Source: Escherichia coli (GTDB lineage: Bacteria; Pseudomonadota; Gammaproteobacteria; Enterobacterales; Enterobacteriaceae). Taken from it: 64,000 bases of DNA. The position numbers and the translations under genes were made by a program. Position 1 is the first letter of the stretch. Each line of letters opens with the position of its first letter. The stretch is from NCBI RefSeq assembly GCF_009931435.1, contig NZ_CP043414.1; one strand, given 5' to 3'. The notes beneath the pieces were generated by a model. It was not told where the DNA came from and ran no database searches. It saw only the letters and a list, made by a program, of their open reading frames with translations. Shown here in pieces: positions 17,345 to 22,146 of the stretch.

Positions 17345-17623
17345 TTACCTCCAGATACGTTGCTGGTATGTGCGGGATGGACGCGGTGGACGTTCGGAAT
17401 AAGGGAGCCTGACAGAGATTATCCAGTGACGATAATCGAGGCTGAGGGCTTTCTTAACCTCGTATCCGCGCCTGCCGTAACACTGAATCAGCCATTCGGC
17501 CTGTTCTTCAGTGCATGGGGGATGCTGGTACCAGTCAGATTTGAATACATGAGAACGCCGCCCGTGCCTGCTGGCAAAAGCGGCTGAATTATCAGAATTG
17601 TGTAATTTGGTCTTGTGCGCCAT
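17345..17623 (-). CDS. Hypothetical small protein (rem-position ORF)
   Basis: ORF downstream of the doc terminator; start set at internal Met (MAHKTKL...). Confidence 0.3.
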   Translation of the reverse strand: MAHKTKLHNSDNSAAFASRHGRRSHVFKSDWYQHPPCTEEQAEWLIQCYGRRGYEVKKALSLDYRHWIISVRLPYSERPPRPSRTYQQRIWR

Positions 17624-17702: not shown

Positions 17703-17724
17703 AAAACCCGCCGAAGCGGGTTTT
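17703..17724 (-). terminator. Rho-independent terminator after doc (AAAACCCGCCGAAGCGGGTTTT)
   Basis: 5-bp GC stem with CGAA loop flanked by A- and T-runs; identical core repeated at 18548-18569. Confidence 0.6.
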
Positions 17725-17738
17725 CATTGGAAGCGCCT

Positions 17739-18233
17739 TTAGTTTTGCTGTTCTATTCTAAGCTTGATAGTTTCATACAAAACAATAGTTGCGCCTGTTT
17801 TACATAATTCCCGGCTGTCATACGCGCGAGACCAATAACACAACCAGTTCTCGAGATCTTCTCGAGTATAGGTTTTGCAGGCCAGTCCCTCTGCCATTTC
17901 CACGATTTCATCGCCTGGTGCTGTTAACTCATAGCCATTCAACAACAAGAAGACGTAACCAGCCATCATAGCTGTTCGTTTGTTCGCATTAGCAAACGGA
18001 TGATTCTGAATCAGACTTTCAATCAATACCGATGCCAGTACAAACATGTCATTAGTCTGTTCATACCATCGAACCATGCTGGGACGGGCCTGAGAAGAAC
18101 TTAAGTTATCTGGACTCAGAACACCAACGGGCTCATCTGGCGTCTGTAATTCAATTAGGGAACGATTGATTTCAACAAGATCATCAACCGTAAGGTAATG
18201 CACTCCTTCAACAATCTCAGCCATAGAGCACAA
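17739..18233 (-). CDS. doc: Doc/Fic-family toxin (death-on-curing-like)
   Basis: Motif HPFANANKRTA matches the Fic/Doc signature HxFx(D/N)(A/G)NKR. Confidence 0.8.
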   Translation of the reverse strand: MCSMAEIVEGVHYLTVDDLVEINRSLIELQTPDEPVGVLSPDNLSSSQARPSMVRWYEQTNDMFVLASVLIESLIQNHPFANANKRTAMMAGYVFLLLNGYELTAPGDEIVEMAEGLACKTYTREDLENWLCYWSRAYDSRELCKTGATIVLYETIKLRIEQQN

Positions 18234-18242
18234 TACCCATCA

Positions 18243-18470
18243 TTACACTTTTGAAAGTTCTTCCATGGCTTTCTCATAACGAGAAAAACCGAAATCAAAA
18301 GCATTTTTCACTTGTTCACGATGTGCGCAGTTTTCATCAATCGCTGGGCGAGGGACTGCCACAACGCTTTTATCGCGAGGCGGAATACTCAACCGCGTGT
18401 GTTTTTTGAGTGGGCAGCTCATACTAATGAGTCCTTTTGTTTTCCGATTATTGGCAAAGCCATGCACCAA
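18243..18470 (-). CDS. Putative antitoxin for Doc (not obviously Phd-like); start uncertain
   Basis: Small ORF immediately upstream of doc with a 9-nt gap; typical antitoxin-toxin gene order. Confidence 0.45.
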   Translation of the reverse strand: MVHGFANNRKTKGLISMSCPLKKHTRLSIPPRDKSVVAVPRPAIDENCAHREQVKNAFDFGFSRYEKAMEELSKV

Positions 18471-18547
18471 ATTTGATGCAAAATAGATCTGTTTGAGATC
18501 CTTAGGATAGTCTAATGGTAGCTAAAATTACAACCTCATAATGCGAC

Positions 18548-18569
18548 GAAAAACCCGCCGAAGCGGGTT
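18548..18569 (-). terminator. Rho-independent terminator after hok (same stem-loop as 17703-17724)
   Basis: AAAACCCGCCGAAGCGGGTT, followed by a T-run on the minus strand. Confidence 0.55.
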
Positions 18570-18637
18570 AAGTGCGGGTGCGTTGAGGATGCCTGACACA
18601 TCAGAGGTGGCGAGGGATTTCTCCCCCGCCAGGTCTC

Positions 18638-18793
18638 TTACTCCTCAGGTTCGTAAGCTGTGAAGACAGCGACCTCCGTCTGGCCGGTTCGGATTCGTAC
18701 CTCGCAGAGGTCTTTCCTCGTTACCAGTGCCGTCACAATGACGGTTAAACAGATGACGATCAGGGCGATTAACATCGCCTTTTGCTGCTTCAT
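18638..18793 (-). CDS. hok: Hok/Gef-family type I toxin (HokD/RelF-like, 51 aa)
   Basis: MKQQKAMLIALIVICLTVIVTALVTRKDLCEVRIRTGQTEVAVFTAYEPEE matches recalled HokD/RelF; the ORF track extends the frame upstream. The sok antisense RNA is expected around 18.8-18.95 kb but is not mapped. Confidence 0.85.
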   Translation of the reverse strand: MKQQKAMLIALIVICLTVIVTALVTRKDLCEVRIRTGQTEVAVFTAYEPEE

Positions 18794-19640
18794 AGCCTGC
18801 TTCTCCTTGCCTTTCGGCACGTAAGAGGCTAACCTAGATTTGCCGTTCATAGATTGAGCCTCAGATTAATGTTAAGCGTCTTGCAGGACGCGTAATGTTA
18901 ACTGGGGCTTTTCTATATCTGCCTTTGGTGTTCATGCCTGAGACAGATAGCCTCAAGCACCCGCAGCCATTGTACTTAACTCCCGTTACCTCGCCAATAT
19001 AAAATCAATCAGAAAGGCGATCCATAAGGACAATAGCAAGACAATAAATTGCCATTACCCGCAATAGCCAGCGCACATTTGAGGACCAGCACGACAACTT
19101 TCTGTATCGGACGTACACCAGTCCTGATAAATACAAGGCGGTCTCATCAGTGATGAAATGCAACTATTGAGTACAGTTTCTCTGATTTTTCTGTAAAACA
19201 TGGAACACAACAACTAAATATAACTAGCACTTCTTAAGATGTACAAATTCAGAGTTAAGATAACGTAAGCAGTTTTCTCAAAACTAAGTGTAAATTTTTA
19301 ATGAAGAGCAGTGCTATGCTCCTGATCATATATTCATTGTTTGGAACTGGAGGAATATTTAGGTTGCTGGAGTGGTTGATTGAATTTAAATCAACTAAGA
19401 CAAAAACCAACAATTAAAGATATGTGGTATATCAGAAAACAACTATCCGTATATTACTACAGAATTAAATACTAGCAACAAAGCTGTCTTTATTGATTTT
19501 TTATCTGATATCGAAATAAATAAACATAAAATAACCAACTAATTAAAACAGAGACTCGACAATGAGCCTCTATCTATTGTAACAGCACTTCCAAATTTAT
19601 TTTAGTAAGATAATAGCATGGGGCATACTAGCCCCATCTT

Positions 19641-21143
19641 TTAAACCGTTTCATCAAGGAAATACTTAGACGAATCATCCTGTTTCGGTTGATATGTTTT
19701 TTTTGCAGAATTAAGAACTCTTCTTAGTTCTTTTCTTAACTCAGGTAAACGCTCCTGAAGAGGGTTAGAACACCATTGTGAAGGCAACCCTCTTATAATA
19801 GCTTCGGAACAAAGCGGTGAAATAAGTTTTTCCATTTGATAATAGAAAGTTTTTGCTCGACTTACACGCATTGTGATCCTTTTTATTACATCTCTTTCAG
19901 ACTCAATTCTAGCACTCAGATCTCTTAATCTACTCCATACCTTAGCATCAGCAATATATGTATCATAAAGCATACACTCTATAAACGTGAAATTACTAAT
20001 AAGTTCTTTTGCAATATACCCCCCCAGCCGAGAAGGAATGAAACTTGATGAAGCTGTTGGATCTCCGTGATTTACGGTGAACAAAAACCTTTTATTGCAT
20101 AAATCAACGAGAACTCGATGCGTGAAAGAGTCACCTATACCAATTAACCTTAACTTTTCAGTTATTACCGAACCATCGATTTGTCTGAATCCGGGATCGC
20201 TTGCATACGAAACGATAACATTAAGAATGTACAGCCTCAATAATTGCATTTGTGTCACAGCTAAATTCGAATCAAACGGGTTCGCAATAGTCGACGTTGA
20301 CTCGCTATAAGTCAACTCAGTACCCAGTAATATAGCTCTAAATGCCTCATGACGTGGAAGAAGATATCTTCCTTGTTCTCTGAAAATTTGTACTGCTTTA
20401 CCTGGACTCGTATACCCTCTTTCTAAGAACTCACGAGTCATACGTAATGCTAATCGAACATCATCCGTAGCAAGAACTTCAATACGTGTTCCAATCTCAC
20501 TTCCCAGCACAGACCCACTAATAATATCGACTAATTGTGATATATCATCCAATACAACTTTAGCGCCATTTTCTGCAATAAAATTTCCACTTTTATTACT
20601 TGTCATATACTTTACTAGTGCAAAGCGTTTTGCAATCACACTACTTATTCTCGGTGGATCTATTTGTATAACTTCAAAATCGAAAGCATCTATAGCAGGT
20701 GAGTTTTTATGTTTGATAAATGTAGACTGCCTCAATGAAAGTACTAAATTTAATGAAAGCGCTCTGGAAATTGAAAATGACTCGGTAAATATCCGGGACT
20801 GGATATCATCAAACTCGATCTGATCAACGTTATCAATAACAAGAAAAAAAGATGTCTCTTTTGTAACACGACTTATTATTTTATCAACATAAGGTTTTAT
20901 CTTTTTATATTGTTCATATAAAAAATCCGAGATTCTGGTATTTTTTTGATCCTCACTCAATAAAAAAAGAGGTCCTGATTTTATCGCCTCAATATCTTCT
21001 CGAAATGCATCAAATACAAAATCCTTATTACTCAAAACAGGATGCTTATTGATATATTCCAGAATTGATTTATAAATAAAATCGACTATTGAACTTTCTG
21101 ATGGATTATCTAGAAAGTCTATATGAACCCAATGCGGCGTCAA
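19641..21143 (-). CDS. 3' ORF of split nuclease-NTPase gene: Walker B-like FFLVIDNVD plus ~400-aa C-terminal region; track start is TTG and the frame is open further upstream
   Basis: Same strand as, and overlapping frame with, the upstream ORF across an A8 tract; hhhhDxxD motif ~100 aa into the ORF; AT-rich. Confidence 0.6.
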   Translation of the reverse strand: MTPHWVHIDFLDNPSESSIVDFIYKSILEYINKHPVLSNKDFVFDAFREDIEAIKSGPLFLLSEDQKNTRISDFLYEQYKKIKPYVDKIISRVTKETSFFLVIDNVDQIEFDDIQSRIFTESFSISRALSLNLVLSLRQSTFIKHKNSPAIDAFDFEVIQIDPPRISSVIAKRFALVKYMTSNKSGNFIAENGAKVVLDDISQLVDIISGSVLGSEIGTRIEVLATDDVRLALRMTREFLERGYTSPGKAVQIFREQGRYLLPRHEAFRAILLGTELTYSESTSTIANPFDSNLAVTQMQLLRLYILNVIVSYASDPGFRQIDGSVITEKLRLIGIGDSFTHRVLVDLCNKRFLFTVNHGDPTASSSFIPSRLGGYIAKELISNFTFIECMLYDTYIADAKVWSRLRDLSARIESERDVIKRITMRVSRAKTFYYQMEKLISPLCSEAIIRGLPSQWCSNPLQERLPELRKELRRVLNSAKKTYQPKQDDSSKYFLDETV

Positions 21144-21147
21144 GATA

Positions 21148-22146
21148 TCACATTGATTTGAAAAAAAACTCTTTTATTCTAACCTTTCTCATGTAATGAA
21201 GAAATGTTGTTTTACCTGCACCTACAGTCCCAAGTAACAAGATCGCGAGAGGTTTGTCATTCCTGACTTTTATTTTTTTCTTCCCTTTAACCTGAAACTT
21301 ATCAACTATTCTTTTTGTATCTTTATCATTAAGCCCTTTTAGTACTTCACCATTCAGCACACTTGAACGCCTACCTATATTCATTCTAATTTTACTATCG
21401 AATCTCATAGTTTCTGGTGTTGAAACATAACATTTATCAAAGGAGTCTTCATCCAAGTAAAGTATAGAATCAGAAAAAGCCAACCTTAATTCATCAGCAA
21501 TCAAATGATATATTGGATTATTTGTCTGTGTTCTGTTTTGTTGCGAATAAAAATTTCTTAATTTTCTAAATTCTATTTGATTTTCGACGCGACCTAAAAG
21601 TGCTGTTTCTAGACTTCCTGATATAACATTTTCACGACTAAGTAAATCATAGAATTCTTGATAATTATCATTTAAGCAATCTTCTAACGACCAGAACACA
21701 AGCGCTATTGAATCATTAAATTTGACATTGTCATGCCTCTGAGCTGCAAAACATGCCCATACATTTCCATTCGTAGCGACAGCATAATCTATACCAAATT
21801 TCCTGGCGTAATCTCTAGCTTGTATTATCGCTTCACCAAGATCACTTTGTAAAAAACTATTACTTAGCTTTATTTTTCTTTTTCCTGGAATTGTACTAAA
21901 GCTTGGCCCTGCCTTTTTAGCTTCAACAACAAGAGCAATATTAGCTGTTTTTAGTATATAATCAGCATAAGTTGTCAAACCATCTTCAGTCACATGCTCT
22001 TCTGGTTTTATATCACTATCAGTCCACATCAAGACTTCCTTTAATACCCGATCTATCACTTTTAGTCTTGTGGCTGCTTCATTTGCATTTTCTAATTGTA
22101 AATGATGATAAGCTGATAATATTTCCGAAATAAATGTTTTCTCCAT
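21148..22146 (-). CDS. 5' ORF of split nuclease-NTPase gene: N-terminal PD-(D/E)xK (HsdR-N/Mrr-like) nuclease domain plus Walker A P-loop
   Basis: N-terminus ANEAATRLKVIDRVL...YADYILKT...ALVVEAKK...QARDYA...YAVATNG (restriction-endonuclease-like fold); C-terminus LAILLLGTVGAGKTTFLHYM (GxxGxGKT), then a stop 22 codons later inside the homopolymer. Confidence 0.65.
   Translation of the reverse strand: MEKTFISEILSAYHHLQLENANEAATRLKVIDRVLKEVLMWTDSDIKPEEHVTEDGLTTYADYILKTANIALVVEAKKAGPSFSTIPGKRKIKLSNSFLQSDLGEAIIQARDYARKFGIDYAVATNGNVWACFAAQRHDNVKFNDSIALVFWSLEDCLNDNYQEFYDLLSRENVISGSLETALLGRVENQIEFRKLRNFYSQQNRTQTNNPIYHLIADELRLAFSDSILYLDEDSFDKCYVSTPETMRFDSKIRMNIGRRSSVLNGEVLKGLNDKDTKRIVDKFQVKGKKKIKVRNDKPLAILLLGTVGAGKTTFLHYMRKVRIKEFFFKSM

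Follow-up and report, generated by a model that had tools for sequence, protein, structure and literature searches.

Copies of one terminator hairpin on both sides of a Doc-family toxin cassette beside a hok/sok locus in an Escherichia coli prophage

Lambdoid phages carry morons, promoter-gene-terminator units that are present or absent between conserved genes (PMC3594210), and in T4-type phages PeSL stem-loop/promoter repeats mediate the shuffling of cassettes (Arbiol et al. 2010, PMC2839356). Toxin-antitoxin modules of two kinds bear on the locus described here. One is hok/sok, of which hokW-sokW of prophage Sp5 is a functional prophage representative (PMC8621323), and the other is Phd-Doc of phage P1, whose toxin is neutralised by a two-helix 'Phd-C' element that acts on its own when stabilised and is portable (Ernits et al. 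2023, PMC10440598); single-domain antitoxins exist (PMC10440598). The subject of this analysis is a 64-kb stretch of E. coli DNA (contig NZ_CP043414.1), referred to over its full length as the window, which is the early-right region of a lambdoid (Rac/Qin-like) prophage. In it a hok/sok locus is followed by a two-gene cassette, consisting of a 59-amino-acid (aa) open reading frame (ORF) and a Doc-family toxin gene, and both units end in the same terminator hairpin. We consider it probable that the cassette is a moron inserted at this hairpin, that its two genes form a type II toxin-antitoxin pair and that the hairpin served as the recombination joint.

The elements of this locus, a Doc pair with a minimal putative antitoxin and a moron slot bounded by a terminator hairpin, are variants on known themes. 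Like other morons, the Doc cassette is a self-contained unit with its own terminator, shows precise presence or absence and has a GC content unlike that of its flanks; it differs in that its border is one duplicated hairpin, common to unrelated cargos and belonging to a toxin mRNA. The hok-hairpin site shares with PeSL the occurrence of repeated stem-loop terminators beside promoters where insertions, deletions and replacements begin and end, but it belongs to another phage group, has another sequence and places the stem-loop before the promoter, and mini-circles are known for PeSL. Plasmid R1 hok/sok and Sp5 hokW-sokW have in common with the window locus the Hok peptide, the RF01794 leader, the tac-fbi fold-back and the terminator hairpin, whereas the window is distinguished by an upstream ORF in frame with hok and by a Sok promoter that is only a weak candidate. 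As in P1 Phd-Doc, the window module has the layout of an antitoxin-then-toxin operon on a temperate phage, with a TIGR01550 Doc that carries the Doc-type motif. In contrast to P1 Phd, however, its partner protein is 59 aa long, with another sequence and predicted fold and no predicted globular DNA-binding domain, and the window Doc (161 aa) exceeds P1 Doc (126 aa) by a conserved C-terminal extension of ~35 aa. PanA/Phd-C antitoxins possess a short C-terminal helical neutraliser, and the conserved part of the window partner is likewise a C-terminal helix, kinked in a fusion model, although it is without a Panacea domain and the likeness rests on the predicted helix, not on sequence similarity. 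Finally, the Qin prophage of E. coli K-12 has a type II module, relBE, beside hokD in the same prophage neighbourhood, but there relBE lies upstream, 71 nucleotides (nt) from the hokD start, whereas the window Doc lies downstream and the hok leader is intact. In the full-text literature searched, whose limited journal coverage makes this weak evidence, we found no description of a toxin-mRNA hairpin serving as shared joint for several cargos, or of the 59-aa Doc partner family.

Exactly two copies of the 20-mer AAAACCCGCCGAAGCGGGTT, which reads AACCCGCUUCGGCGGGUUUU on the coding strand, are present in the window, at 17703-17722 and 18550-18569. Each copy lies 3′ of a stop codon on that strand and is made up of a GC stem, a UUCG loop and a T-run, with folding energies of -12 to -14 kcal/mol. 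By our own arithmetic, ~0.002 identical 20-mer pairs are expected by chance in 64 kb. An earlier model-made account of the sequence (the preliminary description) had both toxin units ending in the identical 20-nt stem-loop, and this was borne out.

A site with a single hairpin was found in phage vB_EcoS-640R1 (our locus L002), where the hok 3′ untranslated region (UTR) is followed by one hairpin and then by rem. The left flank of this site is that of the window copy at 17703 and its right flank that of the copy at 18550. In the window these two sequences flank the pair of copies on the outside, and the window therefore holds an insertion of 847 bp with the 20-mer on both sides. The GC content of the insert is ~44%, against 49-56% in the flanks. 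With its precise presence or absence between conserved neighbours and its own terminator, identified by terminator scan and folding, the cassette is moron-like.

The distance from the end of the hok 3′UTR to the start of rem was compared in 126 sequences, comprising 120 from a scan of viral contigs for the end of the hok 3′UTR, loci L001-L005 and the window. The arrangements below are given with their numbers of loci among the matches listed:

52-53 nt to rem: empty site, 47 loci
900 nt to rem: Doc cassette, 5 loci, including the window and E. coli N61
649-718 nt to rem: 130-aa lipoprotein, 10 loci
1886 nt to rem: 197-aa protein and IrrE-like peptidase, 1 locus
2176 nt to rem: 216-aa protein and helix-turn-helix (HTH)-IrrE protein, 3 loci
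344-345 nt to rem: short non-coding insert after a variant hairpin, 5 loci
no rem anchor within reach: other contexts or contig ends, 54 loci

Each of the three protein-coding alternative cargos is bracketed by a second full or partial hairpin, and the non-coding insert has only one hairpin, a variant. The duplicated stretch measures 13-22 nt and always includes the hairpin. At the other end of the unit, the 3′ hairpin of the Doc cassette was found joined to six downstream contexts, four of which also occur directly after the hok hairpin elsewhere. The same stem-loop is thus found at the borders of differing insertions and replacements, as in PeSL-type cassettes. The empty site, the alternative cargos and the multiple downstream partners agree with the proposal, made from the window sequence, that the identical hairpins mark modular exchange. 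Two of the alternative cargos start with a GGTTGACA promoter 10-17 nt past the hairpin, at the place where the Doc cassette has GGTTGTAA; no GGTTGACA-type motif was seen in the lipoprotein cargo within the sequence inspected.

The lipoprotein cargo, present in phages 689R5 and 606R7 (L003 and L004) and in at least 8 viral contigs, has a predicted signal peptide and LGGC lipobox. It belongs to phrog_16082 with a weak Cor-like N-terminal match, and its hok-proximal hairpin is shortened to CCCGCTTCGGCG. The IrrE-type cargos (L095 and L047/L067/L079) consist of an unknown protein of ~200 aa followed by an IrrE/ImmA-type metallopeptidase, which in one case has an N-terminal HTH; each of these units opens with a TTGACA promoter just after the hairpin.

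On the minus strand of the window, the order of genes is CI-like repressor, replication genes, hok/sok, Doc cassette, rem-like gene, DUF968/YdfU, RusA and Q; hok, the 59-aa ORF, Doc and the rem-like gene are all on this strand. The features of the locus, in the direction of transcription, are as follows:

18969-18997, minus strand: candidate hok promoter, TTGGCG-17-TACAAT, predicted by consensus scan, ~7 nt before the mRNA 5′ end
18546-18962, minus strand: predicted full-length hok mRNA, from its minimum free energy (MFE) RNA fold and tac/fbi pairing
18788-18962, minus strand: hok/sok regulatory leader, Rfam RF01794
18832-18903, plus strand: candidate Sok antisense RNA region, facing the start of the extended mok-like ORF
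18638-18793, minus strand: hok toxin coding sequence, 51 aa, Pfam HOK_GEF and RefSeq HokD
18550-18569, minus strand: hairpin copy 1, the hok terminator, AACCCGCUUCGGCGGGUUUU on the RNA, directly 3′ of fbi
17723-18569, minus strand: inserted unit of 847 bp, the Doc cassette and one hairpin copy, missing in empty-site phages
18504-18533, minus strand: candidate cassette promoter read by eye, with -35 TTGTAA at 18528-18533, an 18-nt spacer and -10 TATCCT at 18504-18509
18463-18480 (TGCACCAAATTTGATGCA) and 18481-18494, no strand assigned: two adjoining palindromes, a candidate operator between the candidate promoter and the ribosome-binding site
18243-18422, minus strand: 59-aa putative antitoxin, phrog_2208, with motifs IPxRDK and QVKNAFDFGFSRYEKAMEELSKV-COOH
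17739-18224, minus strand: Doc-family toxin, 161 aa, HPFANANKR
17703-17722, minus strand: hairpin copy 2, the Doc cassette terminator, with T-run and flank as after the single hairpin of empty sites
17345-17623, minus strand: rem-like gene, phrog_1212, the downstream neighbour, found directly after the hok hairpin in empty-site phages

The hok product (18638-18793) matched Pfam HOK_GEF with E=1.1e-23, and its counterpart in E. coli N61, whose locus is 99.4% identical to that of the window, is annotated HokD by RefSeq (WP_000813254.1), so that the 51-aa HokD-like toxin of the preliminary description stands. The Rfam sok model RF01794 aligned with 18788-18962 at 105 bits (gathering score 59, E=9.5e-24). 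This match runs along the hok-sense strand up to the hok ATG and therefore marks the hok/sok leader, not the antisense transcript itself. The candidate hok promoter is located just upstream of Rfam model position 1 (18962), matching the predicted 5′ end of the mRNA, and a mok-like extended ORF in frame with hok starts at 18850. In the MFE fold of 18545-18962, the 5′ tac element (18951-18962, GGGUGCUUGAGG, nt 1-12) pairs with the 3′ fbi element (18576-18588, CCUCAACGCACCC), a fold-back pattern typical of hok mRNAs, and the terminator hairpin comes directly after fbi. The predicted fold has a dG of -170 kcal/mol (z = -6.5), and 0 of 100 shuffled sequences were as stable. On the plus strand, 18832-18903 gave a fold (z = -3.3) that ends in a 3′ stem-loop, and a weak candidate Sok promoter, TTGCCT/TAACCT, was read by eye. 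Judged by its sequence, this is a complete type I toxin-antitoxin locus with a hok promoter, leader, tac-fbi fold-back and terminator, the Sok promoter being a candidate. Two elements had been suggested for checking at the outset; the fold-back was recovered, and a sok promoter of consensus type was not found.

Assignment of the second cassette gene to Doc/Fic was upheld by a score of 128.5 bits against NCBIfam TIGR01550 (DOC_P1; cut-off 38.65) and by a match to Pfam Fic (6.6e-12); the protein also matched PHROG 577, 'Doc-like toxin'. Its motif HPFANANKR fits the Doc-type motif HxFx[D/N][A/G]NKR, which reportedly has K for the second G of the Fic motif, and H, F and NxNKR are invariant in the family alignment. 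The nearest solved relatives by sequence were a 'death-on-curing family protein' (9vzc) and P1 Doc, and the best fold matches were P1 Doc chains of Phd-Doc complexes (Foldseek top matches 3k33_A and 3dd7_A). Toxicity in the Doc family acts via phosphorylation of EF-Tu. The clade to which the window Doc belongs comprises 284 clusters, with 65-99% identity across Enterobacterales among the best 120 of the 284. Neither toxin of this locus stands out within its family, and both Doc and HokD already carry these names in PGAP annotation. In the Doc clade, the C-terminal extension of ~35 aa (W..WSR.YDSR.LC ...; window 17739-17850) has a conserved start and a variable end.

The partner of Doc is less easily placed. 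RefSeq labels the 59-aa ORF a hypothetical protein, sequence and profile searches gave no match in Pfam, NCBIfam, PADLOC or PDB, and the only match was to PHROG 2208 ('unknown function'), over the full length. Identity with Phd/YefM was rejected, as there was no match to PF02604 and the hhalign probability against a hand-entered sequence of P1 Phd was 0.3%; a C-terminal likeness to Phd seen by eye (F...F......EL...) was also rejected as evidence. AlphaFold2 (AF2) modelled the partner alone as an extended N-terminus followed by one helix (residues 34-58, predicted local distance difference test (pLDDT) >90), with no sheet or globular domain, which is not a Phd/YefM, ribbon-helix-helix or AbrB fold. 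The preliminary description had found the small ORF unlike Phd/YefM and had called for its alignment with these and other antitoxin families; the first point was confirmed by the missing PF02604 match, the hhalign result and the non-Phd predicted fold, and the comparison yielded no relative in Pfam, NCBIfam or PDB. In a fusion model with Doc (mean pLDDT 60), the partner helix is kinked at ~residue 49.

A word-indexed search with the partner recovered 15 clusters, and an exhaustive profile search of 1.84 billion representatives recovered 38, all but one of them 38-121 aa long, far fewer than the 284 of the Doc clade. Two motifs are common to the family, IPxRDK close to the N-terminus and H..QV.NAF...F.RYEKA.EEL(S/A)KV right at the C-terminal end. 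Across more than 20 loci, drawn from 12 genera and 2 Pseudomonas phages, the partner gene precedes doc by 0-18 nt (18 nt in the window), and no locus examined lacked it. Homologues lie 0-10 nt before Doc in Salmonella, Providencia, Arsenophonus, Serratia, Kluyvera, Citrobacter, Hafnia, Rosenbergiella, Yersinia pestis and Morganella, and 3 nt upstream of it in the two Pseudomonas phages. The contexts of the module are unrelated, and include a prophage tail region in Salmonella, the topA-sodC interval in Providencia and a position beside CRISPR-Cas I-F in Arsenophonus. In Providencia rettgeri RB151 (L146 3184-3671), the Doc gene is in three fragments and the small ORF is intact, which to judge from the sequence is the decay expected for a toxin gene. 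On the strength of this genomic context, the partner is read as a putative minimal Doc antitoxin.

These observations can be combined into a mechanism. An 847-bp moron would have entered exactly at the hok terminator hairpin, leaving one hairpin copy on each side, and would consist of a weak promoter of its own with palindromic operators (18463-18494), the 59-aa gene, Doc and the hairpin terminator. Doc, by analogy with its family, would phosphorylate EF-Tu and so stop translation, and the 59-aa protein would neutralise it, most likely with its invariant helix at the C-terminus, much as Phd binds Doc through C-terminal helices. Promoter-gene-terminator cassettes could be inserted, deleted or swapped where hairpin copies recombine through their short homology. 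Phage Rad52-like recombinases use short or diverged homology, and phage recombinases could catalyse recombination between the hairpin copies. Selection would favour retention of an intact terminator on the hok mRNA, which is lethal and whose 3′ end takes part in hok control. We put forward more tentatively, as possible but not as our expectation, that the hok terminator of lambdoid prophages is a docking site for cassettes, where genes of toxin, defence-like and exclusion-like kinds would be gained, lost and given new partners as hairpin copies recombine, perhaps via circles, and that the 59-aa protein is a minimal Doc antitoxin made up mostly of a neutralising helix. The position of such a docking site would not shift, since hok, which is lethal, stays under control only after events that restore the terminator. 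That the toxin modules act in abortive infection or addiction, as the preliminary description put it, is plausible.

Several observations weigh against insertion of a type II module through the hairpin. An identity of 20 nt is short for RecA-type recombination, and both the recombinase and the order of events are ones that we infer. One Doc module of Citrobacter is likewise closed by this hairpin core, beyond which come DUF1367-like, rem-like and RusA genes, and no hok was present within 3 kb; it is thus possible that the Doc cassette already used the hairpin as its terminator before it met hok. A consensus promoter scan that found the hok promoter gave no sok promoter and no cassette promoter above threshold. 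The viral-contig scan for the hok 3′UTR end, with at least 120 loci, is a sample and not a census. When the partner was fused to Doc through a GS linker and modelled in AF2 with a paired alignment, the mean pLDDT was 60 and the N-terminal half of Doc fell below 50; since the partner scored as high alone as in the fusion, the comparison says nothing on Doc binding.

Alternative accounts concern the hairpin on the one hand and the cassette genes on the other. If the two hairpins were independent terminators that had converged, their identity would be uninformative on exchange. Terminators commonly combine a GC stem with a UUCG loop, and Doc modules of Morganella and Kluyvera end in this stem with other loops or in similar GC/UUCG designs. 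Convergence nevertheless appears very unlikely, given that the single hairpin of the empty site matches the outer flanks of the window copies and that all six downstream contexts are joined at the hairpin. The distribution of the 14-nt hairpin core argues in the same direction. The phage and prophage loci retrieved, 1.4 Mb in all, contained it in 126 copies; this sample was mostly chosen by hok 3′UTR match, and is hence biased to hok-bearing phage DNA and not a genome-wide background. Of the copies, 96 were directly after the hok 3′UTR, 30 were at cargo ends and none was at an unrelated terminator. The possibility, raised from the outset, that the hairpin is common at unrelated E. coli terminators was accordingly not realised within this hok-selected sample. 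Exchange might instead depend on a dedicated mechanism that recognises the hairpin, such as integron attC-like single-strand recombination, replication template switching or PeSL-like mini-circles, the last of which provide a precedent. This would fit the constant presence of the hairpin in the duplicated stretch and the finding of three unrelated cargos within hairpin brackets, two of them with the GGTTGACA promoter after the hairpin. We regard it as doubtful; no recombinase gene travels with the cassettes, and long homology is available from hok, which invariably forms the left side. The present data do not separate the mechanisms.

With respect to the genes, the preliminary description proposed that a Doc-type module had replaced relBE at the equivalent position of Qin-type prophages. 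Both type II modules do adjoin hokD in lambdoid prophages. The comparison with Qin, which it also called for, showed that the positions differ: the coding-strand order in K-12 Qin is relB-relE-hokD-rem-ydfU, with relBE 5′ of hokD at the position of the leader, whereas Doc lies 3′ of hok, between hok and rem, and so did not replace relBE. The relE-hokD gap of 71 nt (L005 2775-2847) leaves no room for the ~170-nt hok leader of the window, and on its 5′ side the window keeps an intact leader and then a different, low-GC gene. The equivalence was rejected on gene order, and replacement of relBE must be considered extremely unlikely. A further alternative is that the 59-aa protein is only a regulator or co-factor, or that Doc requires no antidote, being a harmless effector or one triggered by phage. 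The partner has no detectable similarity to known antitoxins in the searches above, the models gave no readable contact between Doc and partner, and conserved palindromes upstream hint at a DNA-binding role. Set against this are the antitoxin-first order with its gap of 0-18 nt, strict co-occurrence across genera and contexts, the one case of toxin decay (RB151) in which the small gene was kept, and the fact that the most conserved part of the protein is the C-terminal helix, as in Phd-C. On balance we judge a non-antitoxin role to be unlikely, and retain the reading of the cassette as a toxin with its putative antitoxin.

Moron exchange has mostly been put down to 'illegitimate recombination'. 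Here the joints are legible to the base, and one 20-nt hairpin is combined with several cargos and several downstream partners, which makes the mechanism of exchange testable. If insertion at the hairpin is correct, the need of a toxin mRNA for its own terminator may be what fixes the site of a moron. The Doc clade spans Enterobacterales and Pseudomonas phages and includes prophages of Shiga toxin-producing E. coli O157, O121 and O104:H4; annotating the partner, which is unnamed in family databases, would complete these toxin-antitoxin calls if it is indeed the antitoxin, and the pair would then offer a very small model for Doc neutralisation without a Phd fold. In itself, the stacking of toxin modules is a common feature of prophages.

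The Doc cassette was found in 124 of 5426 complete E. coli genomes, always on the chromosome, and in at least 119 of the 124 it adjoins hokD. Genes downstream of it vary in O121, O157, O104:H4 and M19, being either DUF1367-DUF1364-DUF1133 or RelE/ParE-HTH followed by ORF6N and NinB. The ~125 nt that separate the hok hairpin from the small ORF occur in two diverged versions (window 18423-18549, and ~4700-4850 in L126-L129), and the coding part is 87-96% identical between the two. Both retain GGTTGT(A/G)A...ATTAG(A/G)CTAT(C/G)CTAA. The candidate cassette promoter, which is below the threshold of the consensus scan, is kept in the second version as TTGTGA...TATGCT.

In Providencia and Salmonella, too, palindromes were seen by eye in the region of the module promoter. 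In Providencia and Morganella (L133, L144, L145 and L148), promoters of the TTGACT...TATAAT type were read by eye ~60-100 nt before the small ORF, with a perfect palindrome of 8-nt arms, AATGAAAG..CTTTCATT, in the spacer. The sequence TGGTATTA, similarly noted by eye, recurs before the module in the second E. coli version and in Salmonella, Kluyvera, Citrobacter, Hafnia and Rosenbergiella.

Two E. coli loci differ around the hok-Doc region. In O104:H4 (L127 3388-3966), RelE/ParE toxin and HTH genes lie on the opposite strand directly downstream of the Doc cassette, so that hok, Doc and RelE/ParE form a series of three consecutive toxin modules. In O121:H19 (L126 5170-6332), an IS3 element is located ~100 nt upstream of the hokD start, at the position of the hok leader in the window.

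The window slot equivalent to that of relBE is occupied by a split gene of low GC content (32-38%) at 19641-22146 on the minus strand. Its two ORFs, 21148-22146 (332 aa) and 19641-21143 (500 aa), are in different frames and correspond to the N- and C-terminal parts of the 833-aa phrog_14719. The junction falls just after a run of eight T, and beyond this family the only matches were weak and restriction-enzyme-like. This looks like a frameshifted foreign gene. The same slot upstream of hok holds relBE in Qin and an ATP-dependent nuclease in N61.

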